NCBI GenBank assembly: GCA_040388985.1
Contig: JAZKAU010000002.1
Location: 52,570-116,569 of the forward strand
Reading direction: 5' to 3'
Length of the DNA: 64,000 bases
From: Patescibacteria group bacterium
GTDB taxonomy: Bacteria > Patescibacteriota > Minisyncoccia > Phycocordibacterales > Phycocordibacteraceae
A program made the position numbers and the translations under genes. Shown here piece by piece: positions 7,881 to 26,267 of the stretch. Under the pieces are notes generated by a model, which saw only the letters and a program-made list of their open reading frames with translations, was not told the origin of the DNA and did not search any database. Each line of letters starts with the position of its first letter. Position 1 is the stretch's first letter.

Positions 7881-7895
7881 CGCAGGCGCTTCACT

Positions 7896-7945: not shown

Positions 7946-8022
7946 GAGAGGACTTGAACCTCCACGCCCTTGCGAGCTCTACGACCTGAACGTAGCGTGT
8001 CTACCAATTTCACCACCCGGGC
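7939..8022 (-). tRNA. tRNA-Leu (CAG)
   Basis: Type II tRNA. Acceptor GCCCGGG/CCCGGGC, anticodon stem CTACG/CGTAG, loop TTCAGGT (CAG), T-arm GGAGG-TTCAAGT-CCTCT. CCA not encoded. Confidence 0.85.
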
Positions 8023-8058: not shown

Positions 8059-8790
8059 TCAGAGCGCGACTCCCGTAAATACCTTCTCGAGCGTACCTTT
8101 CGCGACCAGCTCCTCCGGAGAGCCCTGCGCGACTACCTTCCCCTTGTCAAGTATATAGCCGCGCGTGGCGATAGTGAGGAGCGACTTGATATTGTGTTCC
8201 ACCACGACGATGGATGTCCTGCGCTTCTCGTTTATATCCTTCACGAAGGCGAATATCTCTTTCACGACCTTGGGAGCCAGCCCGAGCGACGGCTCGTCGA
8301 GCAAGAGCACTTTGGGATCGGTCATGAGTCCGCGCGCAATGGCGAGCATCTGTTGTTGTCCGCCTGAGAGCGTGCCTGACTTCGCGCCGCGCTTCTCCTT
8401 GAGTACGGGGAAGAGTTCGTAGAGATCGCGTATGCGTTCCTTCACGAGCTGCGGGCTTTTGATCCTGAAACCGCCAATCTCGAGATTCTCCTCGACCGTA
8501 AGATCAGCGAAGACGCGACGACCCTGCGGGACGAAGGCTATGCCGCGCTCAACTACCTCGTGCGAGACCGGCGTGAACTTTTGCCCTTCCCAGGACACCG
8601 TGCCTGAAAGAATGGGAGCGAGTCCGAACAGAGCTTTGAGTATCGTCGACTTCCCTGCGCCATTGGGCCCCATCAGGGCAACTACTTCGCCCTCGTCGAG
8701 ATTCACGGACGCGCCGTCGAGCGCTTTCACGCCGCCATAGTGGACGTGGATATCATGCAGCGACAACAATGGTTCCTTGAGTTCTTTCAT
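8059..8790 (-). CDS. livF: branched-chain amino acid ABC transporter ATP-binding protein LivF-like
   Basis: Walker A GPNGAGKST, signature LSGGQQQ, Walker B LLLDEP. Typical LivF length. Confidence 0.85.
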   Translation of the reverse strand: MKELKEPLLSLHDIHVHYGGVKALDGASVNLDEGEVVALMGPNGAGKSTILKALFGLAPILSGTVSWEGQKFTPVSHEVVERGIAFVPQGRRVFADLTVEENLEIGGFRIKSPQLVKERIRDLYELFPVLKEKRGAKSGTLSGGQQQMLAIARGLMTDPKVLLLDEPSLGLAPKVVKEIFAFVKDINEKRRTSIVVVEHNIKSLLTIATRGYILDKGKVVAQGSPEELVAKGTLEKVFTGVAL

Positions 8791-9521
8791 ACGCCTAAGT
8801 ATGCCTCGATCACTGCCGCGTCACTCAGTACGTCCTGCGGCGTGCCTTCCGTAAGGAGCTTACCCGTATCCATCACGATGACGTGATCGCAGAGTTCGCG
8901 GATGAGCGCCATGTCATGCTCGATGAGCACGATGGTCTTCCCCTGCTCTCGCAGCTCTTTCATGATTCCCGATACGAGCTTCACCATCTCCGGAAAGAGC
9001 CCCGCATAGGGCTCGTCGAAGAGGACGATGTCGGCGCCTGTGGCGAGCGCCCGCGCGATTTCAAGGAGTTTACGCTGACCATAGGACAGCTCCGCCGCAT
9101 TCGCGCTCCGCTTCTCCCAGAGTCCTACGCGCTCGAGCACTGTTCGCGCGCGCTCGATATGCGCGCCGCTCGGTCGTTCGAAGAGCGAACCGAGGATGCT
9201 CCGGCGCGTGAGCGCAATGATGATATTATCGAGCACCGTCATCTGTTCGAATATGCGCACATTCTGGAAGGTGCGGGTGATGCCCAGCTTGAAGACTTCG
9301 TAAGGGCGTATGCGAGACCGTTCCTTCCCTCCTTCAACTACTACGATTCCCCCATCCATCCTATGGATACCGGTGAGAACGTTAGTGAGCGTAGTCTTCC
9401 CCGAGCCGTTTGGCCCTATCACGCCCGTTATCTTCCCTTTAGGAATAGAGATGGAAAGCCCGTTCACGGCTTTCACGCCGCCGAATACTTTAGCCAGGTT
9501 CTTTGTCTCTAGCGCAGCCAT
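8787..9521 (-). CDS. livG: branched-chain amino acid ABC transporter ATP-binding protein LivG-like
   Basis: GPNGSGKTT, LSYGQRKLLEIARAL, LFDEP. Overlaps livF by 4 bp (operon). Confidence 0.85.
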   Translation of the reverse strand: MAALETKNLAKVFGGVKAVNGLSISIPKGKITGVIGPNGSGKTTLTNVLTGIHRMDGGIVVVEGGKERSRIRPYEVFKLGITRTFQNVRIFEQMTVLDNIIIALTRRSILGSLFERPSGAHIERARTVLERVGLWEKRSANAAELSYGQRKLLEIARALATGADIVLFDEPYAGLFPEMVKLVSGIMKELREQGKTIVLIEHDMALIRELCDHVIVMDTGKLLTEGTPQDVLSDAAVIEAYLGV

Positions 9522-9545
9522 ACAAGTAGTACGATAGCACGCGTA

Positions 9546-10301
9546 TTAGGGCTTATCGTCAGGCCCTATCGGCACGGCGTCTTCCCATACTGCATCGAAA
9601 TAATATCTGAACATCGTCACCATATCTCGGTCTCGAATCTCGATAATGCGAGGCTCGTTACTCATGATCTGCAATATCACCGTGTCATGGATGATATTGA
9701 AGTTACCTATAGGATTTGAACCTTTCTGCCAGAGCCGATATTCCGTCAGATCAGGATACCGCCGCAGGAGTTCCTGCTCGTGGTCGGTTATCTCGAAGTG
9801 AATGGTCTTCCAGATGATGCGTTTCTTCTCGCGCAAATCCATATACTCTCGTACGCCGTCTTCTCCAAGCAGTTTCGTCCATATCTCATGTGAAGGCACG
9901 CCGAAGCAGTAATCGACGGTTCCTTCAGGGAACCGTTCGAGCGAACTCAGCCAATACGCACGGTAGCTATCGACGCCTTCATAGACCGTGATCTGTTGCT
10001 CGACCTGTTGTCGATACTGCTTGATCTCCTTTATCACCTCATCAGCGATCTGCTCTCTCCGTTTCAACATCGTACGTATGCTGTCAGGCTCGGTGATCTG
10101 GAACCACCATACTCCGCGCTTGCTTATCTTGGTCACGAATCCCTTGCGGATGAGGGTCTCAAGGGCCTCATATACCACGTTCCTATGTATATCGAGCTTG
10201 GCGATAATCGACCCTGCCTTAGAAGAGCCGCTCTTTATGAGCGTCTCGTAGATCTGAGATTCATTCTTTGTCAGTCCCAGGGCCTGAAGATTCTCTATCA
10301 T
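9546..10301 (-). CDS. TrmB-family HTH transcriptional regulator (paralog 2)
   Basis: LGLTKNESQIYETLIKSGSSKAGSIIAKLDIHRNVVYEALETLIRKGFV HTH. Paralogous C-terminal domain. Confidence 0.7.
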   Translation of the reverse strand: MIENLQALGLTKNESQIYETLIKSGSSKAGSIIAKLDIHRNVVYEALETLIRKGFVTKISKRGVWWFQITEPDSIRTMLKRREQIADEVIKEIKQYRQQVEQQITVYEGVDSYRAYWLSSLERFPEGTVDYCFGVPSHEIWTKLLGEDGVREYMDLREKKRIIWKTIHFEITDHEQELLRRYPDLTEYRLWQKGSNPIGNFNIIHDTVILQIMSNEPRIIEIRDRDMVTMFRYYFDAVWEDAVPIGPDDKP

Positions 10302-10509
10302 TTTGTCATTACAAATACAACAACATAAATATACGCCATTTCAACCAACAAGCAAGCCATTCTATAGCGTCCTGGCGAGCAGTTCTGTCACTCAGAATCG
10401 TTTGATGTGACTTCGCGATTTAGGTTTCCTTACACGGTCTGAGCCCTCATTCCTTAGGGACTCATATAGAACCAGCCGCTGGCTGAGCTTATAGGCGTAA
10501 TCAACCATA

Positions 10510-11637
10510 ATGAACAAGAAACTCTTGGCAGGTGCGATCATACTGATCGCGGCCATCCTCGTCATATCCTTCGTTTCTGTGCATCCAGCTAAGCAGTCAG
10601 AGGAGGCCGTGCGCATAGGACTCATAGCTCCGCTTACCGGACCGTTCGCTGACTGGGGAACCTCCATTCAGAACGGCATGCAGCTGGCAGTGCAGGACAC
10701 GCATCACACCTTCGACGTGAATTATCAGGATGATGGGTGCGCCGCTCGTAACGGCGTGTCTATCGCGCAAGAATTCTTTGACGTCGAGAACATCAAGCTC
10801 ATCATGGGGCCTGGCTGCGTAGAAGTGTTGCGTCCGATAGCACCGCTCGCAGACAGCAACGGAGCATTACTGCTCTCGACCGGACTCCTTGATGACGCCA
10901 TCTTCGCCGAACATCCGAGCGTACTCAATTTCGCCACCCAGATATCCGCTGAAGCGGAATATATGGCTGCATATCTTGAGTCGAAACAGGTGAAAAGAAT
11001 CGCTACCATATACGGAACGAATGACTTCGGGGTCGAGTTCTCCAAGCGCTTGCCAGAGTCGCTCGCCAAGCGGGGTATAACCGTAAGTGGCACCAACTCC
11101 AGCAACCTGGACATCACGGACTTCCGCACGATCATCCTGCACCTCATACAGAGCAAGCCAGATGCCATCTTCATCCATCAGGGTGAGAAGCAAGTTGGCC
11201 TGTTCGCCAAGCAACTCCGAGAGATGGGATACGACGTACCGATCTACGGAGGATATGGCACCGAAGCGGACTCGGTTCTTAATGCTGGCGGAAGTGCCGT
11301 CGAAGGCATCGAGTACACCTATCCGGTCAATAGTGCGGACGAAGCGCCAGAGAAGCTCGCCTTCGACAAGCGCTATGCGGAGATGTTCAACACTACCCCT
11401 ACGGCCACTTCGCGCTTCGTATATGACGGGATGATGATCCTCGATAAGGCGCTTGATGCATGTGCCGCGTCAGATACTACCTGCATCCGCGACTATATAC
11501 GACACATCGGAAAGTATTCCGGTATATCAGGAGACATGTACTTCAAGGAAGATGGCAGTCTCGTGCGGCCGTTCGGCATAAAGAAGATCGAGGGAGGGAA
11601 ATTCATCTGGGTCACCAAGGATATCAATATATTCTGA
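10510..11637 (+). CDS. ABC transporter substrate-binding protein, LivK/Peripla_BP_6 type (SBP 1 of 6)
   Basis: N-terminal TM/signal, IGLIAPLTGPFADWG ligand-binding loop motif typical of Leu/Ile/Val-binding protein family. ~375 aa. Confidence 0.8.
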   Translation: MNKKLLAGAIILIAAILVISFVSVHPAKQSEEAVRIGLIAPLTGPFADWGTSIQNGMQLAVQDTHHTFDVNYQDDGCAARNGVSIAQEFFDVENIKLIMGPGCVEVLRPIAPLADSNGALLLSTGLLDDAIFAEHPSVLNFATQISAEAEYMAAYLESKQVKRIATIYGTNDFGVEFSKRLPESLAKRGITVSGTNSSNLDITDFRTIILHLIQSKPDAIFIHQGEKQVGLFAKQLREMGYDVPIYGGYGTEADSVLNAGGSAVEGIEYTYPVNSADEAPEKLAFDKRYAEMFNTTPTATSRFVYDGMMILDKALDACAASDTTCIRDYIRHIGKYSGISGDMYFKEDGSLVRPFGIKKIEGGKFIWVTKDINIF

Positions 11638-11661
11638 CGGATCAGCACGAGCGGCTCGTCA

Positions 11662-12795
11662 TCAAATTCGTTCAGGTTTACCATTCCGTATTACCTTAAC
11701 GACGAAGCCCAGATCCGAGTTTCCGAGGGTATCGAGGGAGTAGGTACCCATGAGGCCTGTGTAGCCGTGTACGCTCGTCGTGAGCCAGTCATGCACGCGC
11801 TGGCTATCATCTCCCACGGCTTTGAGCGCGCCCGCTATCAGCATGACCGAGTCATAGGTGGATGCGGCGTGGAAGGCGATGAACGGCGGCGTACCGTACG
11901 TCTCCTGATACTTCGCGAAGAACACCTTCGTCGTAGTCGCGTCCGCGTCGTATGCAGGATCGGCGAAGTAGATTCCCTCGAAGGAACCGACGATATCCTT
12001 TGCGCTCGTGTTGAGGACGAAATTGAAGTCGGACATGAACGGCGCCGCTATCCCCGCTTCGCGTGCCTGCTTCACGAAGTACGCGCCACCGATTCCTGTC
12101 TGCGAGACGATGAGAATGGCATCCGGATTCTTTGCCTTCACTTTCGCGACGATGGTCCTGAAGTCATCGGTGCCAGGCTGGAACTCTTCCGAGACGACGA
12201 CCGTACCGCCCCCCTTCCCTATCTCACTCTCGAAGCTTTTCTTTAGGTCGAGCGTATATTCCGTGACTTCAGTAACAGTCGCGACATTCTTGAAACCGAG
12301 CTTGAGCGCTGCATCTGCAAGATCCTTGCCTGCAAGCGTATCGCCGTTGGCAACACGGAAGATGTACTCGCCCGCGTTGTCGACATTCGTACCGCCCGTG
12401 ACCGGCGTCATATAGATTACTTTGTTCTCATTCGCGAGAGGCGCTGCTGCCAGAGTCCCATTACTCGAGGTTCCACCGATGATGTACTTCACGCCCTCGA
12501 CGTTGATGAGCTTCTGCGCAGCCGCCAGCCCAGTCTTGCTGTCGAGACCTGCGTCTTCGACGACGAGTTCGAGCGGGCGTCCGTCTATTCCCCCTTCCGC
12601 ATTCACCTGCGCGACCGCAAGCTTCGCCGTCTGCACGATATTTTCTCCAAGCGCTGCGTAGTCGCCGGTAAGTATGGTCGATACACCTACCTTGATAGGC
12701 TCGCCAGAGGCGGGCGCATTCTTATGACTCAATACTAGATAGCCGAATCCGCCCAGCAAGATGAGAACCGCAAGCGTCCATGTAATGTATTTCAT
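11662..12795 (-). CDS. ABC transporter substrate-binding protein, LivK type (SBP 2)
   Basis: Signal peptide. VGVSTILTGDYAALG motif. 377 aa. Confidence 0.8.
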   Translation of the reverse strand: MKYITWTLAVLILLGGFGYLVLSHKNAPASGEPIKVGVSTILTGDYAALGENIVQTAKLAVAQVNAEGGIDGRPLELVVEDAGLDSKTGLAAAQKLINVEGVKYIIGGTSSNGTLAAAPLANENKVIYMTPVTGGTNVDNAGEYIFRVANGDTLAGKDLADAALKLGFKNVATVTEVTEYTLDLKKSFESEIGKGGGTVVVSEEFQPGTDDFRTIVAKVKAKNPDAILIVSQTGIGGAYFVKQAREAGIAAPFMSDFNFVLNTSAKDIVGSFEGIYFADPAYDADATTTKVFFAKYQETYGTPPFIAFHAASTYDSVMLIAGALKAVGDDSQRVHDWLTTSVHGYTGLMGTYSLDTLGNSDLGFVVKVIRNGKPERI

Positions 12796-12873
12796 GAACT
12801 TGACTTTACTTATTTTGTGTCTCTATGTATATGTGTCGTCGACAGTCCGACAACTCAGATATATAGTGTCTAT

Positions 12874-13650
12874 ATGCTTAAGGACACATTCGCCGAACTC
12901 GGGCTCTCAGAATCCTGCTATCGGGTCTACGCTACCCTGCTTGAATACGGCCCTTCTTCAGCCAAACAAATATCCGAGCGTCTCGAGCTGAACCGTCCGT
13001 CTACCTACGATTACCTGAAAGCGCTTACCAATAAAGGGTTGGTCATGGAACGCTTCGAAGATGCGAAAAACCTATTCCAAGTCGATGACCCGAAGCAAGT
13101 GACGCGCCTCTTGGACGAGCGCATCGAACAGTTGGCAGTGCAGCGCAAGCAGGTGGCACTTGAGATACCCGCGCTCATGAAGCATGCGGACTCCGTTGAC
13201 CCTACGTTCAAGTTCTATACCGGGAAAGAAGGCGTCCGGCAGGCACTCAATCAGATCGTGTACTCGGGCGAAACTGACAGCATCGCCATGTGGTCCATAG
13301 AGGACGTCGTGAACCTTCTCGGCGGCCCCGAGATGGTCGACATCGTGAAGAAACGCGTCCAGAACAAAGTGTACGTGCGAGGGATCTGGAGCTATACCGA
13401 TAATCTCGAGGACATGAATCGTAAGTTCAATCCGACCGTCGCCGAGGAGTCGCTACGTGAAGTCAGGATGGCGCCCAAGGAGATGCAGAATCTCAGCATG
13501 GGGTACTGGCTCGCCGGGAACACCGTCGCCTTCGTCTCATCCAAGCGGGAAGCATTCGGCTTCGTGCTTCGCAGCCGAGACTTCGCCGACTTCCTGCGCT
13601 CGCAGTTCGAGATGGTCTGGCAAGCTTCGACCCTTATAGTAAAAGACTAG
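12874..13650 (+). CDS. TrmB-family HTH transcriptional regulator (paralog 3)
   Basis: MLKDTFAELGLSESCYRVYATLLEYGPSSAKQISERLELNRPSTYDYLKALTNKGLV. C-terminal ...LRSQFEMVWQAS. Start set to ATG 12874. Confidence 0.7.
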   Translation: MLKDTFAELGLSESCYRVYATLLEYGPSSAKQISERLELNRPSTYDYLKALTNKGLVMERFEDAKNLFQVDDPKQVTRLLDERIEQLAVQRKQVALEIPALMKHADSVDPTFKFYTGKEGVRQALNQIVYSGETDSIAMWSIEDVVNLLGGPEMVDIVKKRVQNKVYVRGIWSYTDNLEDMNRKFNPTVAEESLREVRMAPKEMQNLSMGYWLAGNTVAFVSSKREAFGFVLRSRDFADFLRSQFEMVWQASTLIVKD

Positions 13651-13654
13651 GATC

Positions 13655-14521
13655 CTAGAGCTTGAACTTCCCTACGAGCCCCTGCGGACGATAGAGCATG
13701 AGAAGGACGAGAAGGAGGCCATAGATAAGCTGACGCATCTGAGCGGCGATATCTGTCGAGAAGCCGACGAAGCGCAGCGCCTCCGGAAGCAGGACCAGGA
13801 CGAGCGCGCCGAGCACCGCGCCGCGAAGCGTCCCGAGGCCGCCAAGGATGATGATCGAGAGCATGAAGATGGATTCAGGAATATTGAAGGAGCTCGGATC
13901 GATGAAAGTGATGTAGGAGGCGAAAAGCGCACCCGCCACTGCCGCCATACCCGCGCTGAGTACGAATATAAGGAGCTTGAATCCTGATGTGCGGTAGCCG
14001 AAGACCGAGAGCGCCTCTTCGTCTTCACGTATGGCTTCCAGGGTGCGCCCGAAGGACGACTGCGTGATGAGCCTTCCGAAGGCGTAGACGATGGCCAGCA
14101 GTAGAAGCGCAAGGAGCAGGAAGAAGGCATTGTCCGAGAATACGAAGCCGAATAGTTCGGGACGGCTGATGCCCGGGATGCCGAGCGGACCGCGCGTGAG
14201 GCCCTGCCAGTTAAGGAGTACTGAGAAGACGATGACGTTGAAGCCGAGCGAACCGAGCGCATAGTAGTCATCGCGGAATTTCGAGAGTACGAGACCGATA
14301 AGCAGTGCTGCGAGCGCGCTCCCGAGGATGCCGAGCGCAAGGGCGCCGAAGAATCCGATTCCGGTGTTCGTAAGCAATAGCGCGACCACATACGCGCCGA
14401 TGCCGTAGAAGGCTGCGTGCGTCACGGAGAGCAGGCCTGTGTAGCCGACGAGCAGCTGGAGCGATATGGCGAGGATCGCGTAGATAGAGACCAGTATCGC
14501 CAGATGGATAATATATTCCAT
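13655..14521 (-). CDS. livM: branched-chain amino acid ABC transporter permease LivM-like
   Basis: 288-aa polytopic membrane protein with LLSVTHAAFYGIGAY... LivM-type permease core. Confidence 0.8.
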   Translation of the reverse strand: MEYIIHLAILVSIYAILAISLQLLVGYTGLLSVTHAAFYGIGAYVVALLLTNTGIGFFGALALGILGSALAALLIGLVLSKFRDDYYALGSLGFNVIVFSVLLNWQGLTRGPLGIPGISRPELFGFVFSDNAFFLLLALLLLAIVYAFGRLITQSSFGRTLEAIREDEEALSVFGYRTSGFKLLIFVLSAGMAAVAGALFASYITFIDPSSFNIPESIFMLSIIILGGLGTLRGAVLGALVLVLLPEALRFVGFSTDIAAQMRQLIYGLLLVLLMLYRPQGLVGKFKL

Positions 14522-14524
14522 ATA

Positions 14525-15400
14525 TCAGATGCGCTTCTTCCCCAGTATGCCCTGGGGACGGAAGAGGAGGAACAGGATGAGCACGGTGAAGGCAATGGCG
14601 TCTTTCCATTCGCCGGATATCTGCCAGATGCCGAAGTTCTCTGCAAAGCCCAGCAAGAAGGCGCCGAGGAATCCTCCGTAGACGCTGCCGATGCCGCCGA
14701 TTATAGCCGCGATGACGCCCTTGAGGAGGATGAGGAAGCCCATACGCGGCTCGATACCCGTATCCATGCCGGCGAAGACGCCGGCGAGTCCGGCGACAGC
14801 GGAGCCGATGATGAACACAGCCCCGATGATCGAATTGGTGTCGATGCCCACGATCTTCGCGACTTCTTCGTCGTCGGAGACCGCGCGTACCGCGCGACCG
14901 AACGACGTCTTCGTGAGCACTAGTCGCAGCGCAATGAGGACAACGACCGAGGACCCCAAGATGATTGCCTGGACGCTCGTCATGACACCGCTTCCGAAGT
15001 GAATGATATGTGTCGCGCCCGTAAGCATTGCTAGCGTCCGGAACTGGCTCGTGAAGAGCATGGCGATGAGGGCTTCGACAGCCGTAAAGGCGCCGAGCGA
15101 CGCTACGAGAAGTACCAGATTCGAGGCACGCCGAGCGCGTAGCGGCCGGAAGATGAGGCGCTCGAAGCCGTATCCGACTAGGGCCGCAGCCGCCACTGCG
15201 CCAATCACCGCGACCCACACCGGCGCGCCAAGCGTACTCCCTAGGTAGAACGCAGTGTACCCGCCCACTGCAGCCAGGACGCCGTGCGCGAGGTTGAAGA
15301 ACCGGGTTGCGCCAAAGACCAGGTTGAATCCCATCGCCACCAGCGCATAGAGCGAGCCCGCGATAAGACTGTTAACGATGAGCTGCGGGACGATGTCCAT
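14525..15400 (-). CDS. livH: branched-chain amino acid ABC transporter permease LivH-like
   Basis: MDIVPQLIVNSLIAGSLYALVAMGFNLVFGATRFFNLAHG is the canonical LivH N-terminus. Confidence 0.85.
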   Translation of the reverse strand: MDIVPQLIVNSLIAGSLYALVAMGFNLVFGATRFFNLAHGVLAAVGGYTAFYLGSTLGAPVWVAVIGAVAAAALVGYGFERLIFRPLRARRASNLVLLVASLGAFTAVEALIAMLFTSQFRTLAMLTGATHIIHFGSGVMTSVQAIILGSSVVVLIALRLVLTKTSFGRAVRAVSDDEEVAKIVGIDTNSIIGAVFIIGSAVAGLAGVFAGMDTGIEPRMGFLILLKGVIAAIIGGIGSVYGGFLGAFLLGFAENFGIWQISGEWKDAIAFTVLILFLLFRPQGILGKKRI

Positions 15401-15460
15401 GTGTTCCCAGTATAAACGAGAAGGGCCGCATGCAATGCGGCCCTTCTCGAGAACTTCTGA

Positions 15461-16594: not shown

Positions 16595-16706
16595 AATCCA
16601 TGTAGCTATTTGTTAATAATCCACTGACGGAAATGCTATTGATTATATTGATTAGTGTCAAGAAATGTAGTATATTGTTGGCATTAGCCGACAACGATAC
16701 TAAACG

Positions 16707-17492: not shown

Positions 17493-17582
17493 CGAAGAAC
17501 TGACACCGAGTCGCCCGTCGTGGGTAACATAGGAACAAAAGCGCCTCTTCCGAGGCGCTTTTGTTCCTATGACTTTTAGAAA

Positions 17583-18713: not shown

Positions 18714-18816
18714 AAATTCCGACAGGTATTACTAGTGGTATGCCTGCAAAATATACCTATCTTGACAAGAGTCAATGGCTTGTAGCATAATTGTTGATAT
18801 AATCCAACAACACGAC

Positions 18817-19602
18817 ATGGCTCAACAAATACAAGCTACTTTGACAGGCATATTCGAGAACCTCGGACTCTCATCCAGCGAGATACCTGTTCTCCTCTTC
18901 CTGCTTGAAAGCGCGAACGGTCTGCGCGCCACTGAGATAGCGCGCAAGACCCGTGTGAATCGCACGACGCTCTACGGCATATTGAAGAGCCTGACTTCCC
19001 GGGGCCTCGTATCTTCTTCGGAGGAGAACGGCATCATGCGCTTCCAATCCATACAGCCGCACCAGCTCACCGCCTATATCGAAAGCGCCAAGCAGCGACT
19101 CGAGAGCGATACGAAACGCTTGGATCAAGTCATTCCTGCGCTTGCGCATGCTCGCAAGGCTAAAGACGAGCAATATCCGCAGATACAGTTCTTCAGCGGC
19201 GTCGAAGGTATCAAGCAGGTATACGAAGACACCCTGCGGGATAACCCCTCGAAGGCTATATATGGATTCTTCGACTACGAGGCGACGCTCAAGCTTATGG
19301 ATACAGAGTGGCCTAATTACTATATTAAAAAACGAACCGAAGCAGGTATCGAGTCGCACACTATCGCGACTTATAGCCCGCTGACGCGCACCTTGAAGGA
19401 GTTCGACAAGGATTATTTACGCGTAACGAAGGAGTTCCCCGAAGGATTCTCCTTCGCCATGGAAATCAGCGCTTACGGAGATAAGACGATGCTCATATCG
19501 TTCAACGAAGATCATCCGCTCGCCATAATCATTAAGGATGCGAGGGTAGCGGAGACGATAAAGACTCTCTTCCGGTATATAGACAGCACGCTGCCAGATT
19601 GA
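18817..19602 (+). CDS. TrmB-family HTH transcriptional regulator (paralog 5)
   Basis: MAQQIQATLTGIFENLGLSSSEIPVLLFLLESANGLRATEIARKTRVNRTTLYGILKSLTSRGLV. C-terminus IKTLFRYIDSTLPD is close to paralog 4. Confidence 0.7.
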   Translation: MAQQIQATLTGIFENLGLSSSEIPVLLFLLESANGLRATEIARKTRVNRTTLYGILKSLTSRGLVSSSEENGIMRFQSIQPHQLTAYIESAKQRLESDTKRLDQVIPALAHARKAKDEQYPQIQFFSGVEGIKQVYEDTLRDNPSKAIYGFFDYEATLKLMDTEWPNYYIKKRTEAGIESHTIATYSPLTRTLKEFDKDYLRVTKEFPEGFSFAMEISAYGDKTMLISFNEDHPLAIIIKDARVAETIKTLFRYIDSTLPD

Positions 19603-19637
19603 GTCGCGGTCACTACGCGCTAAACCTTGTACGCGTC

Positions 19638-20423
19638 TTATTGTGCGCCTACCCACGACAACTCGAACATCATTCGCATCATGTTATGTATTGTTGGGTC
19701 CTCGATGATCACGCCGCTCGGCGTGTTGTTCTCGATATTCACGATAGACACCTTGTTCGTCCCGTAGACCGTAATCTCGCTCTTGTACGGGAATTGTTTT
19801 GCCGGGATATGTCTCATATTCGGCCAGAACTTCTTCGGGAGATGCGCGTATTGTGCCTTGATGAAACCCTTATCTTTTGCCGTATCAGGAACGATGCCGC
19901 GTGTCGTTATGCCGATTCGCCCTTTCTCTTTCTTATAGAACTTAAAGAAGTCTTCGGGGAAGAATTGGTCCAGGTAGCCTGCGTTCGCCCACGCGACCAT
20001 CTCGTACGGCTTTTCGACCCGGACATGGTCTTCATAGATGGAAAGTACTCCCTCCTTCCCTTCGAAGTACGTGATCTTCGGCTTATTGGGAACAAGGGTA
20101 TACATGCCTTCAAGGTCAGGCAGGAGTTCTTCGGCGGCCGCGAGCATTTCCTTGCCGCGCTCGACATTCATCTTCGCGAAGCGCAGCAGCTTCCGGGGCC
20201 GCTCTATCTGGTAATACAACTTCTTCCCTTTCTTGATCTCGGTCACGAGCCCTTTTACCGATAGGTCGAGAAGAATCTTGTATACCGTGCTTCGGTTAAT
20301 GCGTGCGTCTTTTGCAAGCGCAGAAGGATAGGCACCTCCCCGTTCCAGAAGCGTTACATAGACGACGGCAGCTTTATCCGACAGCCCTGCCTTCTTTACC
20401 TTCTCTACCAAGCGATCATCCAT
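19638..20423 (-). CDS. TrmB-family HTH transcriptional regulator (paralog 6)
   Basis: AGLSDKAAVVYVTLLERGGAYPSALAKDARINRSTVYKILLDLSVKGLV. C-terminus ...MRMMFELSWVGAQ. Confidence 0.7.
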   Translation of the reverse strand: MDDRLVEKVKKAGLSDKAAVVYVTLLERGGAYPSALAKDARINRSTVYKILLDLSVKGLVTEIKKGKKLYYQIERPRKLLRFAKMNVERGKEMLAAAEELLPDLEGMYTLVPNKPKITYFEGKEGVLSIYEDHVRVEKPYEMVAWANAGYLDQFFPEDFFKFYKKEKGRIGITTRGIVPDTAKDKGFIKAQYAHLPKKFWPNMRHIPAKQFPYKSEITVYGTNKVSIVNIENNTPSGVIIEDPTIHNMMRMMFELSWVGAQ

Positions 20424-20605
20424 GGCCGCATACTATGGCTCAAATCAAAATGTGTCAATTCGTAGGAACAGATTTGCGTAAAATGGACTGAAATCCTGTA
20501 TCTGCTTGTATGTATAGAATTATTTTGTTATTTCAAAATACCAAATTTGACATTGATGATACAAATGTGGCGTTACCGTCTACTCACCTAATTGTCCGCG
20601 CTGCT

Positions 20606-21700
20606 ATGCAAAACACTATAAAAATCGTCGCGGTCCTCGTCGTTCTCGCGCTTATCGCCTTCGGGATTTCGCTGATCTCGCGGCCGAAGAGCGACACGAC
20701 CGTGGTCCTTGGCGCCACCCTACCCCTCACCGGAGACCTAGCCTTTCTGGGCGAGGGATATAGAAACGGAATGAACTTGGCGCTTTCGGAGCTCGGAGAT
20801 ACGAAATTCAAGTATAAGATCGTATTCGAAGACGATAAGTTCGATCCTGCGACCGGTGCTACGACGGCAAATAAGCTCATCTCTGTCGACCATGCTGACG
20901 GACTATTCTCGTTCGGCTCTCCGGTCGGCAACGTCGTCAGTCCGTTAGCCCAGAAGAACAACATTGTACATATAAACGGTATAGCCTCTGATCAGAACGT
21001 TGCCAAAGGAGACTACAACTTCGTCCACTGGACTCCGCCCTACGAGGAGTCGAAGCTCCTCATCTCGGAGCTGCAGAAACGAGGCATCAGTCGCGTTGCC
21101 ATATTCGTGACGAATCAGCCAGGCGCACTCGCAGTGGCAGACCAGGTAAGCACTGACCTGAAAACGAGCGGCATCCAGTTAGTAGGATACGAGACCATCA
21201 ATCCTGGAGAGACTGATATGCGGTCGCACGTAGCTAAGGTTGCTGGTTCGAAGCCGGACATGTACATACTCTTGTCCATGTCCCCTGAGCTCGAGATACT
21301 TACGAAACAGATCAAGGAGCAGGGCATAACGACGCCGCTTACCTCTATCGAGTCCTTCGAGTGGACCACGCAGCCGCAGATGTTTGAGGGCATGTGGTAT
21401 ATAAATGCTGCCGATCCGTCTCCTGCATTCGTGGAGAAATATAAAACTGCATACGGACAGAGCCCGACCGTGGGAGCCGCCAACGGCTATGATGCCGTGA
21501 TGCTCTTCGTTCACGCAGTCGAAACGTCAGCACAAGGGACGGGTAAGCCCAGCGAGGAAGACATAAAGAATGCTCTTCTGAATGTTCGGGACTATAGCGG
21601 CGCGGTCGGTGAACATCTCTCAGTCGACCGGGACGGGCTAATTGTATCTAAGGCAGTAGTGCGAATCATCAAGGACGGCAAGCCCGTTACGGTGAAGTAA
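20606..21700 (+). CDS. ABC transporter substrate-binding protein, LivK type (SBP 5)
   Basis: MQNTIKIVAVLVVLALIAFG signal/TM. LGATLPLTGDLAFLG motif. Start set to ATG 20606 (ORF track starts at 20510). Confidence 0.75.
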   Translation: MQNTIKIVAVLVVLALIAFGISLISRPKSDTTVVLGATLPLTGDLAFLGEGYRNGMNLALSELGDTKFKYKIVFEDDKFDPATGATTANKLISVDHADGLFSFGSPVGNVVSPLAQKNNIVHINGIASDQNVAKGDYNFVHWTPPYEESKLLISELQKRGISRVAIFVTNQPGALAVADQVSTDLKTSGIQLVGYETINPGETDMRSHVAKVAGSKPDMYILLSMSPELEILTKQIKEQGITTPLTSIESFEWTTQPQMFEGMWYINAADPSPAFVEKYKTAYGQSPTVGAANGYDAVMLFVHAVETSAQGTGKPSEEDIKNALLNVRDYSGAVGEHLSVDRDGLIVSKAVVRIIKDGKPVTVK

Positions 21701-21771
21701 GTTCAGGGGAGAAGGCCTGACAAAAGCGAAACGCCCGCGAAGCGGGCGTTTCGCTTTTGTCAGGAGATGAC

Positions 21772-22923
21772 TTACTTCACGTACGGCACCATCTTGCCGC
21801 CCGTGACCGTCTCAGGACTATGTCCAGAGACAGGATCACCATTGGCGCCGATGGTAACCGCGCCGGAAGCTCCCTGCCAGTCTTTTACGCTAGTGTGCAG
21901 CCACTTCGCGATCTTCGTGCCATCATAACCTACGGCCGCAATGGCGTCGCGAACGAGATAGACGGAATCATACTCGGTCTGCGCATAGCTGAGATAGGGC
22001 GCGTCGGCTCCGTACTTCGTCTTGTACGCGGAAACCATCGCGGTGAATTTTGGATTGTCCTTCTGCGTACCGAACTCGGCTCCGAGCGCACCCTCAAGCT
22101 GCTTGGCATTCGCTGTTATCGTTGCCGGGTCGCCGATCGTAACATCGGTGAGCAGAAGAGGAAGCTTCCAATCAAGCTGCGCCATCTGCGGAAGAACGCG
22201 AGACGCGCTCGCAGGAGTCTGCGTATCTAGGAATACTGCATCCGGCTTCTCTCCCTGCACCTTCGTGATTATCGAGCGGAAGTCGGTAGTCGCAGTCGGG
22301 AACGACTCATTCGTCACGGTTCCGCCGAGCTTCGTGAAGGTCTCGGAGAACGCGTTATATATACCGACCGCATAATCGGTCTGTTCCTGGATGAACGCTA
22401 CCTTCCTCCACCCCTTATCCGTATACGCGATGTTCGCGAGGACTGCTCCTTGTGTCGCGTCGGACGGATAGTTACGGACGAAGTAGTCGCTGATCGCGGT
22501 GAGCTTCGGGCTCGACGAACCGGACGAGATGACCGCGACCTTTGCTCGCTCCGCTACCGGCACTGCTGAGAGCGATTCGCTCGAGCAGAATCCGCCGATG
22601 ATCACCTGGACCTTGTCGATGTTCACGAGCTTCGAAGCCGCGTTCGCTGCCGACGTCCCGTCGCACTTGCCGTCTTCGACGACGAGTTCCATCTGCTTGC
22701 CGTCGATACCGCCTGTGGCATTGATCTCATCGGTCGCGAGCTGCATAAAATTCTTCGCAGGCTCGCCATATGACGCTGCATCTCCCGTGAGCGGGAGGAT
22801 GATGCCGACCTTGTACGTGTCACCGACGGCGACAGGTTCGTGATGCCGGGTGATAAGGAACCAGCCCCCGACTACCACGATTACTGCGATAAGAACCCAG
22901 ACCCATTTCGGAAATCCTTCCAT
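21772..22923 (-). CDS. ABC transporter substrate-binding protein, LivK type (SBP 6)
   Basis: N-terminal TM. VGIILPLTGDAASYG motif. 383 aa. Confidence 0.8.
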   Translation of the reverse strand: MEGFPKWVWVLIAVIVVVGGWFLITRHHEPVAVGDTYKVGIILPLTGDAASYGEPAKNFMQLATDEINATGGIDGKQMELVVEDGKCDGTSAANAASKLVNIDKVQVIIGGFCSSESLSAVPVAERAKVAVISSGSSSPKLTAISDYFVRNYPSDATQGAVLANIAYTDKGWRKVAFIQEQTDYAVGIYNAFSETFTKLGGTVTNESFPTATTDFRSIITKVQGEKPDAVFLDTQTPASASRVLPQMAQLDWKLPLLLTDVTIGDPATITANAKQLEGALGAEFGTQKDNPKFTAMVSAYKTKYGADAPYLSYAQTEYDSVYLVRDAIAAVGYDGTKIAKWLHTSVKDWQGASGAVTIGANGDPVSGHSPETVTGGKMVPYVK

Positions 22924-23071
22924 AGAGAGTTATATAAGGTGTTAATTGCCAATTCTGAAGAAAGTATGAACTGCGGCGAAAGCCTGTCAACACGCTCATG
23001 TGGGGTACTATTCTGAACCCGTCCAGAAATCCTGTATCTGCCTCGATTCGTCGGGAAAAGCTGATTTAGTG

Positions 23072-23857
23072 TCACGAGCCTGACACGGCCTTCTCACTAC
23101 GCTTCGCTTCTTTCCAGGCTAGCTCGAAAACTTTCTTCATAGCATGAGCAATCTCGGCGCTTTCTATAATGATGCCGAGCTTATCGCGCCATGAGGCGAT
23201 CATTATCTTATTGTCATAGATCTCGATGTCAGGAGTTATGTCGAATTCCTCTTTAGGTATGATGGCTATGTCACGCTTCTCATCCTTGTTATGTGAGGCG
23301 CGCTCAAGCGACGCAGTAGTCTCTGGGACGATGCCGCGAATGCTGATCCCTTTCTCTGCTCGACGTTCATAGTATCTAGGGAAATAGTTTCCGAGCGTCG
23401 CGTGCATATCTTCGTATGCGGCATACGCCACGATCGGTTCAGTTGCGGTCAATGTATCTTCGTACACTTCCTTAAGCCCCTCAATACCTTCGTAGAATCG
23501 TACTTGCGGCCGGTCCTGGACCGTATGCATCGCCCTTAGCTGCGGCAAGAACGCTTTGGCGGTACGCAACTGTTGTTCCGTCTCGGATAATCTGCTATCG
23601 AGAAGCGCGATAAGCTTATCCGGAGACTCGGCGGCATATTCTTCCTTCGGTTCTTTCCCCGACAATCGTACCAGATCCTTCTGAGCCAAGGCAGCGAGTA
23701 TGTCGTAGCCGGTAGTCCTGTTTATGCCGGCCTTACGTGATATCTGGGTTACAGTCCCGCGACCGAGCTTCAATATCGCCAGATATACGCCAACCTCTCT
23801 CTTAGAAAGTCCTAACGAGATAAGCGTCTTTACGATATTCTGTTGTCCCTTTTCCAT
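23072..23857 (-). CDS. TrmB-family HTH transcriptional regulator (paralog 7)
   Basis: LGLSKREVGVYLAILKLGRGTVTQISRKAGINRTTGYDILAALAQKDLV. C-terminus MKKVFELAWKEA. Divergent from radical SAM gene. Confidence 0.7.
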   Translation of the reverse strand: MEKGQQNIVKTLISLGLSKREVGVYLAILKLGRGTVTQISRKAGINRTTGYDILAALAQKDLVRLSGKEPKEEYAAESPDKLIALLDSRLSETEQQLRTAKAFLPQLRAMHTVQDRPQVRFYEGIEGLKEVYEDTLTATEPIVAYAAYEDMHATLGNYFPRYYERRAEKGISIRGIVPETTASLERASHNKDEKRDIAIIPKEEFDITPDIEIYDNKIMIASWRDKLGIIIESAEIAHAMKKVFELAWKEAKRSEKAVSGS

Positions 23858-24033
23858 ACGATAACCATACACTACGCTCTATATTTGTGTCAATATTACT
23901 CCACAATATACATTATATCCTTTATATAAAGGATATTCGAGTGTTCTTTTATTGACATAATTGACAGTAAGGAATAATATTGTATCGGGTGCAACTTGAC
24001 ACCAACCGATAATACAAACCAAGGAGGTCAATC

Positions 24034-25284
24034 ATGAACGTATTCCCTAACGTGGCAGCAACCCTGCCGCCTAAAGGTCAGATTCCGCACAGGTATCGCC
24101 TGATGGTCAACAAATGGAGCTTTCCGGAGGACCGGATCGGCGAAACCGTTACGGCCCACGGCGAGACCATCAAGAAGATGCTCACCCTCGATATCAACAT
24201 TCCCGAGACCGGCTTCGCAGTCCTCGTCAACGCGCAGGCACCAGGATCGGACGCAGCCAAGCGCACGTTCGTGAAAAGCTATCCTTGTCCGCACGCATGC
24301 CCTGGCTGCTTCAATAACGCCGACCTGTTCAACCCGATCATGTCGCTCGAGGAGGTCTTCTCCGTCATCGACCAGGCCTGCGAACTGGGCCTGGAATCCA
24401 TGAAGTTCCTCGGTCCGGGGGAGCTGCTCGCCAATCCTCGAATGTTCTACATCCTCGACGAGCTGGCGAGGCGCAATATCGTCGCCGGCATCTTCACGAA
24501 GGCGGCAATGATGGGTAATGATATGTTGTCGCAGCACTATCACGGCATCGGCTCGGAAGAGCTGACGCGCCGGCTCGCGACATATCCCAACATTACCTTC
24601 CTGGTGGGCGGCCGATCCTTCGACCCGGCACTCGAGAATCGGTTCATTCCCCAGAACCGGCGCGAGTTCAGTGAGCGCTTCGACTACCACGCGGCACGCG
24701 GTCTCGCGATCGAGCGTCTCTGCGCGCACGGCATGAATGCCGATCTCATGCACCAACGGCTCGAGATCGCCTGCGCGCCGGTCACGAGCGAGAACATCGG
24801 CGGGTGCCTCGAGCTCTATCAATGGGGTACCGAACGCAATATCCCCGTGGTAATGCCGCCCACGATGGTAAGCGGCAAAGGCCATCGGCTGGAGAAGGCC
24901 GCTGCCGAGGTGCAGTTCGAAGACGACTATATCGAGCTTGCCGTAGCGGTCTACACCTGGGCTATCCAGCGCGGCGTCATGACCGTGGAGCAGTTGCTGC
25001 ATGAGGGCGCAGCACCCTACATCGGCATCGCTCCCTGCAACCAACTGACCCATGGCCTGTACATCCACTACGACGGTCAGGTGTGGCGGTGCCCCGGGAA
25101 CGACACTCCCGACTTCGTCGTGCACCACAATGTGCGCGAAGCTCCGTTGCGACAGATCTGGGTGAACAGCAGGAACTATGGCATTCAGGCCTTCAACAAC
25201 GGATGCGTCAAGGACGGCATATCGCTGCCAATGCGATTCTACAGCGAAGTGCCGGAGCGCGTGGTCGCGATGCTGAAGATCTGA
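24034..25284 (+). CDS. radical SAM protein (CxxxCxxC) with ~85-aa N-terminal extension and C-terminal Cys-containing (SPASM/twitch-like) region, function unknown
   Basis: SYPCPHACPGCFN is a C-x3-C-x2-C radical SAM cluster motif, followed by a Gly-rich FLGPGELL SAM-binding stretch. C-terminal CNQLTHGLYIHYDGQVWRCPGND...NNGCVKDG. Perfect SD AAGGAGG 6 nt upstream of the ATG. AT-rich promoter region 23873-24033. Confidence 0.7.
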   Translation: MNVFPNVAATLPPKGQIPHRYRLMVNKWSFPEDRIGETVTAHGETIKKMLTLDINIPETGFAVLVNAQAPGSDAAKRTFVKSYPCPHACPGCFNNADLFNPIMSLEEVFSVIDQACELGLESMKFLGPGELLANPRMFYILDELARRNIVAGIFTKAAMMGNDMLSQHYHGIGSEELTRRLATYPNITFLVGGRSFDPALENRFIPQNRREFSERFDYHAARGLAIERLCAHGMNADLMHQRLEIACAPVTSENIGGCLELYQWGTERNIPVVMPPTMVSGKGHRLEKAAAEVQFEDDYIELAVAVYTWAIQRGVMTVEQLLHEGAAPYIGIAPCNQLTHGLYIHYDGQVWRCPGNDTPDFVVHHNVREAPLRQIWVNSRNYGIQAFNNGCVKDGISLPMRFYSEVPERVVAMLKI

Positions 25285-25360
25285 GGCAGTGATTCGGTTC
25301 GAGTAATGACCTTTTTATGCGCCTGTCGGGAAACCGACGGGCGCATTTCATTTCCAGAAC

Positions 25361-26113
25361 CTACCGGCTCGGAAGCGAGTCCCAGATGACCTTGAAGAGG
25401 TTCTGTTGCATGCGCACGAGGGCTTCGGTCTCTATGACGATGGTCGTGACGGGATTGGTGAGCGGATGGATGACTATCTTACGGGGCGCGATAGCCATGT
25501 TTGCGTCGATAGTCGTTCCTTCCGGCAGTATGCGCACTTCTTCGCGATAGTTCTTCTCTGTCTTCTTATATGAGCGCGCGGTCTCTGAAGACACAAGGAT
25601 GACCTTGGTATGCACGTCTATGCGCAGCCGCCGCTCTATGAACGTCTTGAAATATTCCTTGTCGAAGTGATTCCACCGGTCCGGGTCGCCGATGACATAG
25701 TAGTCGTCACCACTGCGGAGATCCTGAAGCAGCTCATCATACGCACTTTTCATAGCTTCAACTCCCGAGTGATACCGGATGATGGAGTCGTTACCGCGCA
25801 GCGTATACAAGGCTTCGAGCTCCGGGAAGAACGACTGCAGCGCGTTCTTCTGCTCATCGAGCATGCGTTCGAGGCGTGCAGGGTTCTCCGCTACCGGAAA
25901 TTCCTTGAATCCTCTCTGCTCGACGGATACCAGTCCCTTTGCCTTCAGAGTCTCGATGACGTGGTAGATAGTCGTCCTCTTCACACCCGACTGGAGCGCA
26001 ATCTTTAGGATAGTGGTGGGGCCAAGCTCCAGCATGGCCAGATATACGGCTGCTTCGTGGTCTCCGAGCCCCGCGTGAGCCAGCATTCTCTGGAGTGATT
26101 CTCTGTTTTGCAT
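25361..26113 (-). CDS. TrmB-family HTH transcriptional regulator (paralog 8)
   Basis: AGLGDHEAAVYLAMLELGPTTILKIALQSGVKRTTIYHVIETLKAKGLV. C-terminus ...QQNLFKVIWDSLPSR. Confidence 0.7.
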   Translation of the reverse strand: MQNRESLQRMLAHAGLGDHEAAVYLAMLELGPTTILKIALQSGVKRTTIYHVIETLKAKGLVSVEQRGFKEFPVAENPARLERMLDEQKNALQSFFPELEALYTLRGNDSIIRYHSGVEAMKSAYDELLQDLRSGDDYYVIGDPDRWNHFDKEYFKTFIERRLRIDVHTKVILVSSETARSYKKTEKNYREEVRILPEGTTIDANMAIAPRKIVIHPLTNPVTTIVIETEALVRMQQNLFKVIWDSLPSR

Positions 26114-26267
26114 GATATGTCGAAAGCTCGGACAAATTTATTTCCTTATTTATAGCATTGTTTTTGTCGTATTTATATAATCTGTCGACAATTTTGGCGA
26201 AATAGATATACGCCCCCACCATTAGCGCTACGTACTACCCTGGTGCGCCTAATACCAACGAGAATAT

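Follow-up and report, generated by a model that had tools for sequence, protein, structure and literature searches.

Why should the genes for a single Liv-type ATP-binding cassette (ABC) importer be interspersed with six substrate-binding protein (SBP) genes, each adjoining a gene for a TrmB-type regulator? This question is raised by a 64 kb stretch of DNA from a Patescibacteria group bacterium (GenBank assembly GCA_040388985.1, contig JAZKAU010000002.1, positions 52,570 to 116,569 of the forward strand; hereafter called the window), and the counts of ABC core, SBP and regulator genes given below refer to these 64 kb of the genome. The six Peripla_BP_6 binding proteins were named S1 through S6, and the nine TrmB winged-helix proteins were named T1 through T9. 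Patescibacteria, or Candidate Phyla Radiation (CPR) bacteria, have small genomes and few recognised transcription factors and rely on imported building blocks, and to our knowledge almost nothing is known about gene regulation in these organisms. The DNA examined here is a nutrient-uptake locus of such a bacterium. We propose that autoregulated, local regulators of the TrmBL2 type gate each SBP gene of one shared translocator, a reading to which we assign a probability of roughly 0.6.

A single Liv core and six SBP-regulator cassettes

The importer core is a single LivHMGF-type (HAAT family) set comprising two permeases and two ATPases, all encoded on the minus strand. The permeases carry BPD_transp_2 domains and are encoded at 14525-15400 (first in the operon, E = 6e-41) and 13655-14521 (second, 4.9e-49). 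The LivG-like ATPase (8787-9521; ABC_tran, 2.7e-28) carries the LivG C-terminal motif (BCA_ABC_TP_C, 1e-8), and its gene lies 24 bp downstream of T1; the gene for the LivF-like ATPase (8059-8790; ABC_tran, 1.6e-33) would be the last of a T1-livG-livF unit. No further ATPase or permease copy was found among open reading frames (ORFs) of at least 150 amino acids in the window when these were searched with hidden Markov models (HMMs) derived from the ATPases and permeases of the window itself.

The six LivK-type (class I) SBPs are 364-383 amino acids long and match Peripla_BP_6 over nearly the full length of the profile, with E-values of 1e-44 to 5e-60. Their genes are S1 (10510-11637, plus strand, 5.6e-46), S2 (11662-12795, minus, 4.7e-60), S3 (15461-16594, minus, 1.2e-56), S4 (17583-18713, minus, 1.7e-54), S5 (20606-21700, plus, 1.3e-44; start taken from the alignment and the gene call in related locus L002) and S6 (21772-22923, minus, 9.6e-54). 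None of the six is a pseudogene, and all genes named here are intact ORFs with the claimed domain according to the ORF listing and Pfam scans of the window. Pfam and the window HMMs are therefore in agreement with the original prediction of one Liv core accompanied by six full-length SBPs.

The nine regulator genes, including the two that had been placed outside the cassette block at 4110 and 49436, all encode a winged helix-turn-helix (wHTH) domain that matches PF01978 with 42-56 bits, above the gathering cut-off of 25.6, and with E-values on the order of 1e-11 to 3e-15. These genes are T1 (9546-10301, minus, 1.1e-14), T2 (12874-13650, plus, 2.1e-14; start picked from the alignment), T3 (16707-17492, plus, 6.8e-11), T4 (18817-19602, plus, 5.3e-11), T5 (19638-20423, minus, 2.2e-12), T6 (23072-23857, minus, 6.7e-14), T7 (25361-26113, minus, 6.2e-14), T8 (4110-4916, plus, 2.8e-15) and T9 (49436-50221, plus). 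Judging from its paralog T9, T6 probably starts at 23857 (MEKGQQ...) rather than at 23872.

Each of the genes S1 through S6 adjoins one T gene. Five pairs are divergent (T1|S1, S2|T2, S3|T3, S4|T4 and T5|S5, with intergenic regions of 78-208 bp), and the sixth is tandem, with S6 following T6 on the same strand after a gap of 148 bp. The claim that SBP genes sit next to, and often divergent from, a regulator gene holds for all six. Also as described earlier, a 4-kb T1-S1-S2-T2 block of two cassettes separates the ATPase genes, with T1 directly upstream of livG-livF, from the permease genes, and T2 is convergent with the neighboring permease gene across a 4-bp gap. T7, which has no SBP partner, converges with a radical SAM/SPASM gene on one side and diverges from a Vut_1 transporter gene on the other. 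T8 and T9 sit outside the cassette block, without SBPs.

Cassettes recur in CPR loci and are inherited as units

The closest database relatives of T3 are 45-55% identical and metagenomic, and the one that is named derives from a Patescibacteria group bacterium. An exact search for T3 in the contig collection gave no match. A scan of one genome per prokaryotic species yielded 80 loci, none closer than 51%, nearly all of which carry CPR labels (Parcubacteria/Paceibacteria, Doudnabacteria, Nomurabacteria, Magasanikiibacteriota, Gracilibacteria, Peregrinibacteria, Berkelbacteria and Saccharibacteria). A total of 84 loci were annotated with HMMs built from window genes.

Synteny comparison revealed the same layout, with S/T cassettes arrayed around one Liv core, in at least 14 related CPR loci. 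Some of these are close relatives of the window (L002, L006-L010). Others are distant (L022 and L046 of Magasanikiibacteriota, L033-L035 and L042 of Parcubacteria, and L043), and their arrays consist mostly of divergent S-T pairs with at most one Liv permease pair (L022, L042) or a single permease gene per slice. Independent gene calls with precomputed Pfam matches show the same arrays in L002-L004, L085 and L086. The positions of the cassettes vary. For example, L002 carries one cassette between livF and livG, and L085, for which the gene calls include no livF, carries two between livG and the permease genes. Like T1 in the window, a T gene in L002 and L004 lies directly upstream of an ATPase gene on the same strand (in L002 this gene is livF, at a distance of 5 bp), and in L086 a T gene, an SBP gene and livF follow one another on the same strand. 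The pairing of LivK-type SBPs with TrmB-type regulators had been viewed as unusual; in CPR bacteria it is recurrent. Given the CPR host, the comparison with archaeal sugar systems made at that time is an analogy rather than a context.

The T family is not confined to such arrays, as about 60 of the 80 scan loci hold a lone T gene. We also examined 85 T genes that have a divergent gene within 500 bp upstream, a sample that is biased to relatives of T3 and T4. LivK-type SBP genes are the commonest partner (35 of 85). The other 50 neighbors are diverse (five radical SAM genes, four methyltransferase genes, three tyrosyl-tRNA synthetase genes, and others), which suggests that the T family acts as a general local regulator of CPR bacteria.

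To follow the fate of individual pairs, we compared 40 cassettes, drawn from the window and from 14 other loci. T-T identities correlate with S-S identities (Mantel r = 0.71, reached in 0 of 2000 permutations), and in 14 of the 40 cassettes the nearest foreign T protein and the nearest foreign S protein are encoded in the same cassette, compared with 2.7 expected from within-genome shuffling (0 of 1000 shuffles). For five of the six window cassettes there is an orthologous cassette in which both members match: T2/S2 in L010 (T 67%, S 67% identity), T3/S3 in L008 (50%, 52%), T4/S4 in L009 (50%, 64%), T5/S5 in L002 (79%, 71%) and T6/S6 in L010 (65%, 54%), where the T6-like gene is divergent from the S6-like SBP gene. 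T-S pairs are inherited as units. The earlier idea that neighboring genes co-diversified therefore stands with respect to non-random, conserved pairing, but within-genome co-duplication is borderline, both in the window (r = 0.48, 44 of 720 permutations) and in the pooled data (r = 0.61, P about 0.05). The divergence of the SBPs follows that of the T protein C-terminal domain (r = 0.71; 0.36 for distant pairs) slightly better than that of the wHTH (0.59; 0.20), although this difference is suggestive only, because the C-terminal domain is longer and its identities are less noisy.

T proteins have the architecture of TrmBL2

The T proteins are 250-268 amino acids long, and their Pfam match is confined to the N-terminal ~65 residues. 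The C-terminal ~170 residues of T1 through T9 have no Pfam match, and Regulator_TrmB (PF11495) is not matched at E ≤ 0.01 by any of the nine. The NCBIfam equivalogs TrmB and TrmBL1 yield only 20-42 bits against cut-offs of 600-650, from the N terminus alone. In contrast, a profile of the nine paralogs aligns full-length with TrmBL2 (5bpd; positions 3-255 on 2-263, E = 2e-9), whereas its alignment with TrmB (3qph) is limited to the N-terminal 143 positions.

An AlphaFold2 model of T3 (pLDDT 91.7) consists of a winged helix followed by a helix of 34 residues and an alpha/beta domain with the phospholipase D (PLD) fold. Its eight top Foldseek matches are all TrmBL2 chains (~13-15% identity), and its alignment with the TrmB structure 3qph covers only 183 of 335 residues of the latter. 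The T proteins therefore exhibit the TrmBL2-type architecture end to end, being ~260 residues in length with a wHTH, a long helix and a PLD-like domain. Because the model ends after the PLD-like subdomain, the second effector subdomain of sugar-sensing TrmB (~70-80 residues, with most of the sugar contacts) is missing. Proteins of the TrmBL2 type are known to lack ~70 residues that hold the sugar-binding part of TrmB (PMC4158304). The HxK(x)4D catalytic motif of PLD enzymes is not conserved in T proteins. As worded, the suggestion that these regulators sense ligands through a conserved TrmB C-terminal domain is not supported, since their PLD-like end resembles that of TrmBL2 and does not match Regulator_TrmB, although the domain may have a pocket of another kind.

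A recognition-helix Tyr and an Arg four residues earlier are invariant in all nine paralogs; in a 26-sequence alignment the Tyr is invariant and the Arg nearly so. By profile alignment this Tyr is the equivalent of TrmB Tyr50, which contacts DNA (PMC4158304, Table 1). Invariant residues of the C-terminal domain are limited to the Gly of a GxEG motif and one Phe. By their DNA-binding domain and architecture the T proteins are members of the TrmB superfamily, and they do not have the features that define the sugar-sensing TrmB.

Identities between T proteins are 19-31%, except for T3/T4 (52%), T6/T9 (52%) and T2/T8 (42%); the nearest paralogs of T2 and T6 are thus encoded outside the block, away from SBP genes. 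The S proteins share 21-39% identity, and both sets of paralogs appear to be ancient. The T family comprises 24,581 cluster representatives at E ≤ 1e-3 and 5,167 at E ≤ 1e-30.

Longer relatives of 387, 514, 650, 790, 926 or 1061 amino acids (P0019, P0021, P0030 and P0135, for example) occur outside the window. These proteins have one N-terminal TrmB wHTH followed by two to seven tandem PLD-like domains of ~135 residues, and each repeat terminates in F-x-x-L-W-x-Q-D/E. The tandem copies indicate that the C-terminal domain is an independently repeating module.

A dyad at T gene promoters

A dyad of the form TGT-N11-13-ACA, with the core TGTYG-N8-CRACA, is located no more than 45 nucleotides upstream of the start codon of all nine T genes. 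The candidate operators of T3 (TGTTG-N8-CGACA, 16676-16693) and T4 (TGTTG-N8-CAACA, 18792-18809) have the 8-nucleotide spacer of this core. The first base of the T3 operator is also the final base of the predicted T3 -10 element (16671-16676), and the T4 operator directly follows the predicted T4 -10 element (TTGACA-18-CATAAT, 18762-18791). Dyads with other spacings precede T1 (N13; a degenerate TGTCA-N9-CAACA at 10304-10322, 3-21 nucleotides upstream of the ATG), T2 (N13; TGTCG-N9-CGACA, 12834-12852) and T7 (N11; TGTCG-N7-GGACA, 26118-26134). The remaining dyads belong to T5 (TGTTC-N8-TGACA on the minus strand, 20453-20470), T6 (23888-23905), T8 (4073-4090) and T9 (49388-49405, with a second at 49315-49332, 73 bp away). 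A second dyad is also present at S4/T4 (TGTCC-N8-CGACA, 18707-18724), where it covers the S4 start codon, its centre lying 85 bp from that of the T4 operator. One could speculate that the paired dyads at S4/T4 and T9 permit looping by an oligomer.

The extended form TTGTYG-N8-CRACAA, with up to one mismatch, occurs three times in the window (0.42 expected), directly before T8, T3 and T4, and TGT-N12-ACA occurs 17 times (6.9 ± 2.5 expected), including six sites in the 720 nucleotides upstream of T genes. Because the dyad was defined from window regions, P-values for the window are post hoc; foreign loci were therefore tested, and only the enrichment observed there is independent. In these loci, TGT-N12-ACA is present within 80 nucleotides upstream of 38 of 114 T genes but only 14 of 924 control genes (odds ratio 32, P = 4e-28). 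The strict form TGTYG-N7-9-CRACA has 37 sites in 1.28 Mb, of which about two thirds are at T genes. Moreover, the half-sites are constant and the 8-nucleotide spacer is variable among orthologs of T3 and T4 (for the T3 operator, in loci L002 and L006-L011), which is the signature expected of a protein-binding site. In six loci orthologous to T5, TTTGTTCG-N7-TTGACA is the sole conserved part of the intergenic region.

These data bear on whether the T proteins could instead be nucleoid-associated proteins or global repressors of low specificity, like archaeal TrmBL2, with their adjacency to SBP genes resulting from family expansion and local duplication. TrmBL2 is indeed the closest solved structure and architecture, nine T copies are packed into 64 kb, the number of family members in CPR bacteria is very large, and numerous members stand alone. 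However, the ~30-fold enrichment of a specific dyad upstream of family members across genomes argues for site-specific binding, as do the fixed promoter positions of the dyads and the retention of their half-sites in orthologs. In addition, particular T-S pairs are conserved as units, and identities of only ~20-30% among nine paralogs would be unexpected for an abundant architectural protein. We consider a nucleoid role quite unlikely, and favor local regulators that recognize the dyad.

A second alternative is that the dyads form RNA hairpins in the 5' leaders of T gene mRNAs, where they would affect translation or stability, instead of serving as DNA operators. The dyads of T3, T4 and T8 lie between the predicted -10 element and the ATG and would hence be transcribed. 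In contrast, the T5, T6 and T9 dyads overlap the untranscribed -35 element. The stems are merely 5-6 bp in length with an 8-nucleotide AT-rich loop, and ortholog half-sites keep their sequence (the Y/R position alone varies) without clear compensatory changes as the spacer varies. Because several dyads are located in an untranscribed -35 element and the half-sites do not co-vary, there is very little to recommend an RNA hairpin over a DNA operator.

Dyads and the promoters of SBP genes

Consensus promoter scans place the dyad over the -35 element for T2, T5 (promoter 20458 to 20430, minus strand) and T6, and the same arrangement is seen by eye, without a scan, for T9. The predicted -10 element ends ~7 nucleotides before the ATG for T2 (12867-12874), T5 (20423-20430) and T6 (23857-23864), and that of T9, also read by eye, ends ~8 nucleotides before it (about 49425-49436). 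This proximity suggests that the T2, T5, T6 and T9 transcripts are leaderless. The predicted promoters of S3 and S4 are back to back with those of T3 and T4 in intergenic regions of 112 bp (S3|T3) and 103 bp (S4|T4).

The T proteins might, however, purely autoregulate or act on distant targets, with the SBP genes being constitutive or otherwise controlled, and adjacency being a by-product of cassette-like insertion at a recombination-prone locus. Consistent with this possibility, the dyads are proximal to the T gene start rather than the S gene start, with the second dyad at the S4 start as the sole exception, and S6 has a predicted promoter of its own (22990 to 22963) that lacks a dyad. Moreover, cassette number and position vary among relatives, and a separate element, an exact 16-nucleotide repeat, lies upstream of S5 and S6 and might control these genes. 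Nevertheless, S3|T3 and S4|T4, the only regions in which both promoters were predicted, have overlapping back-to-back promoters, such that occupancy by a T protein could hardly spare the S promoter. LivK-type SBP genes are also by far the commonest divergent partner (35/85), and orthologous T-S linkage survives rearrangement of all surroundings across genomes. Regulation confined to the T genes or to remote sites therefore seems unlikely to us, and control of the adjacent SBP genes remains the preferred reading.

Two further kinds of repeat were noted in these regions. The 16-nucleotide sequence GAAATCCTGTATCTGC is found at 20490-20505 and 23026-23041, ~100-118 nucleotides upstream of the S5 and S6 start codons and in opposite orientations relative to the two genes (expected count 0.39 at up to three mismatches); it was found in none of the related loci. 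A perfect 22-bp palindrome, ATATCCTTTATATAAAGGATAT, is located at 23915-23936 between T6 and the radical SAM/SPASM gene, and a similar repeat, GATATACTT...AAGTATATC, is located upstream of T9 at 49299-49331. These repeats may represent a second regulatory site specific to the T6/T9 subgroup.

The six binding proteins are predicted to differ in specificity

Each of the six SBPs has an N-terminal hydrophobic helix and none has a lipobox cysteine, so these proteins would be membrane-anchored on the outside of a cell that has no outer membrane. A role as cytoplasmic sensors similar to that of AmiC in the AmiC/AmiR system was ruled out by these anchors.

The closest solved structures to S3 are those of amino-acid binders (3td9, 4gnr, LivK and LivJ). 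SBP pockets were mapped onto LivJ positions by using the published residue list (PMC6983066). To this list we added Glu226, which we take to be a LivJ pocket position. Ser79, a hydroxyl residue at 102 and an acidic residue at 226 are kept in S3, S4, S6 and partly in S5. S3 carries C78/S79, S102, Y150 and E226, and S4, the most LivJ-like, retains nearly the entire pocket (Y18, C78, S79, S102, W150, Y202 and D226). The alpha-amino-acid signature is lost in both S1 and S2, which carry Val, Leu and Tyr or Ser, Gly and Phe, respectively, at positions 79, 102 and 226. On the basis of these residues, S3, S4, S6 and partly S5 look like candidate alpha-amino-acid binders, and S1 and S2 do not. All six proteins score 43-142 bits with the NCBIfam LivJ/K model (PRK15404), for which the cut-off is 477, and none reaches the NCBIfam cut-offs for LivJ/K or urea binders. 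Given these scores and the pocket differences, it is likely that the ligand specificities differ among the six SBPs.

It could be argued that some of the SBPs are extracytoplasmic sensors, or that they serve a different, unlinked translocator. The loss of the signature in S1 and S2, the scores below the NCBIfam cut-offs for all six, and the fact that our view of the genome spans 64 kb are compatible with such roles. However, Pfam scans of the block reveal neither a sensor kinase nor a chemoreceptor nor any other signalling partner, S3 shares an operon with the permeases, and the same SBP arrays in relatives always go with one Liv core. Non-receptor roles or a separate translocator are highly unlikely in our estimation, and the model below assumes that the SBPs are receptors for the linked Liv core.

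A model for cassette-specific control of one importer

In the proposed mechanism, one LivHMGF-type translocator would serve six membrane-anchored LivK-family SBPs. Each regulator, as a dimer or higher oligomer, would bind the TGTnn-N8-nnACA dyad over the -35 element or the transcription start of its own promoter, and by doing so would repress its own synthesis. Since the partner SBP promoter would lie back to back with it in one shared intergenic region of 80-200 bp, binding of the regulator there would also set SBP expression. Two cassettes would have an additional role. T1 would be co-transcribed with livG-livF, such that the ATPase genes ride on the T1 transcript, and the T3-controlled region would drive S3 and the two permease genes. 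The latter would be expressed behind a strong hairpin at the S3/permease junction (15417-15449, minus strand; a 15-bp stem with 10 GC pairs, followed by TTTAT) that resembles an attenuator or terminator. Expression of the core would in this manner be tied to two cassettes. By analogy with the control of the trehalose/maltose ABC operon by TrmB, repression would be lifted by a cytoplasmic signal, which in the simplest case would be the imported substrate bound to the C-terminal domain. In this model we infer repression, the effect on SBP promoters, the sharing of one translocator and ligand sensing, whereas the genes present, their pairing, the conservation of the cassettes, the fold of the regulators and the enriched dyad come from the analysis itself.

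Several points weigh against the model. The dyad statistics within the window are post hoc, within-genome co-duplication is borderline, and the count of Liv cores covers the window, which is 64 kb of the genome. The T-proximal dyads at S3 and S4 are ~50-60 bp upstream of the SBP transcription starts, a position that is also compatible with activation. Cross-talk between T3 and T4, instead of strictly dedicated regulation, is likely, because their recognition helices and half-sites are nearly identical. T7, T8 and T9 show that the family operates without SBPs. With regard to sensing, the C-terminal domain lacks the TrmB subdomain that holds most of the sugar contacts, no invariant polar residues marking a pocket were found in the T alignments, and we know of no ligand for TrmBL2, the closest structure.

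A more specific, and doubtful, extension of the model is that the PLD-like C-terminal domain of ~135 residues is an unrecognised sensor module for small molecules (amino acids or other nutrients) that diversifies jointly with the partner SBP. If so, each cassette would combine an extracellular receptor and an intracellular sensor for the same compound, cassettes could shuffle into and out of one translocator locus, and a wHTH with two to seven copies of this domain would be a multi-input sensor.

The locus offers a regulon model amenable to testing in a heterologous host, comprising a CPR-wide TrmBL2-like family, its candidate operator TGTnn-N8-nnACA, and SBP genes as targets. Conserved T-S pairs provide a route to assigning ligands to two uncharacterised protein families together. 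Furthermore, the cassette layout suggests that the uptake repertoire changes by gain and loss of modules without duplication of the translocator.

Neighboring genes

The remainder of the window is an ordinary bacterial chromosome, with dnaA-dnaN, a ruvA/B/C region, yebC, and genes for a class A penicillin-binding protein (PBP), ribosomal protein L19 and nine tRNAs. An archaeal origin of the DNA was ruled out by its sigma-70-like promoters, dnaA/dnaN, RuvABC, the class A PBP and best matches to CPR sequences. The dnaN and dnaA genes occupy 55019-57798 on the minus strand and are followed by an intergenic region (57.8-58.4 kb); this is probably the chromosomal origin region. The nine tRNA genes are scattered within 4925-8022 and 27398-38581, and those for tRNA-Leu (7938-8022) and tRNA-Arg (27398-27472) bracket the cassette block.

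Two radical SAM genes, at 24034-25284 (plus strand, with a weak SPASM match) and 47778-49223 (minus strand), are divergent from T6 and T9, respectively, and T9 is followed by yebC and ruvC. We rejected the possibility that T6 and T9 with their divergent radical SAM genes represent a duplicated cassette, because the two radical SAM proteins are unrelated. The gene divergent from T7 (26268-26954) encodes a Vut_1/YhhQ-type transporter for a vitamin or queuosine precursor (Vut_1, 9.5e-36), and is a second kind of uptake gene paired with the T family. Directly after T8, an ORF with a weak HNH endonuclease match (4984-5478) lies 3' of the tRNA-His gene (4925-4998) and overlaps it by 15 nucleotides. 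Four consecutive minus-strand ORFs of 296-418 amino acids occupy 59359-63570. Pfam scans covered three of these, all but the 296-residue ORF at 62680-63570; two had no match and one had a weak match to T4SS_pilin below the gathering score. These ORFs may encode CPR-specific surface or pilus proteins.

Comparison with known systems

TrmB of Thermococcus litoralis and Pyrococcus furiosus binds a palindrome at an SBP gene promoter and is released by the transported substrate (PMC4158304). The T proteins are similar in being TrmB-family wHTH regulators encoded inside an ABC importer cluster, and they share with TrmB the wHTH, including the Tyr that contacts DNA, as well as the long helix and the first half of the effector domain, which is PLD-like. 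However, TrmB has 338 residues with a C-terminal sugar-contact subdomain, whereas the T proteins end ~80 residues sooner. The TrmB operator is TACT-N3-AGTA rather than TGTnn-N8-nnACA, its partner is a MalE-type sugar SBP rather than a LivK-type SBP, its promoters are of the archaeal TBP/TFB type rather than sigma-70-like, and there is one regulator per system rather than six cassettes.

TrmBL2 (TK0471/PF0496), an archaeal chromatin protein and global repressor, has the same length and domain architecture as the T proteins, likewise lacks the sugar-binding subdomain, and is their best full-length match by sequence profile and Foldseek. TrmBL2 is, however, a single, abundant and highly conserved protein that shows little specificity in its binding to DNA, whether coding or intergenic (PMC3031468), whereas the 64-kb window encodes nine divergent paralogs, and the promoter of each has a defined dyad. 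A 2011 survey found proteins with a TrmB domain plus effector domain in just 19 bacterial genera (PMC3031468).

With regard to transport, the locus resembles the E. coli LivJ/LivK-LivHMGF system (HAAT, Transporter Classification 3.A.1.4), in which several SBPs use one translocator of two BPD_transp_2 permeases and two ATPases; the SBP folds, and most pocket positions in S3, S4 and S6, are also alike. In contrast with E. coli, the window has six SBPs rather than two, with 21-39% identity and diversified pockets, these SBPs are predicted to be membrane-anchored rather than periplasmic, and the core operon is physically split by cassettes. Moreover, E. coli liv genes are controlled by Lrp and attenuation and not by one regulator per SBP. 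In Borrelia burgdorferi, a reduced-genome auxotroph, oppA1-5 likewise provide multiplied SBPs with separate promoters for a single OppBCDF translocator, but this is a peptide importer of a different ABC family without a dedicated adjacent regulator for each SBP.

Multi-receptor ABC systems and local regulators beside SBP genes are already known, and TrmB itself was discovered in an ABC transporter cluster. In the searchable literature we found no paper linking TrmB-type regulators or LivK-type SBP arrays to CPR/Patescibacteria. What is new is the CPR bacterial host, the short regulator form paired with LivK-type receptors, the repeated cassettes interrupting the core operon, and the family-wide candidate operator. 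On the proposed model, the regulatory logic that joins TrmB to ABC transporters would extend from archaeal sugar systems to bacterial systems of the amino-acid type.

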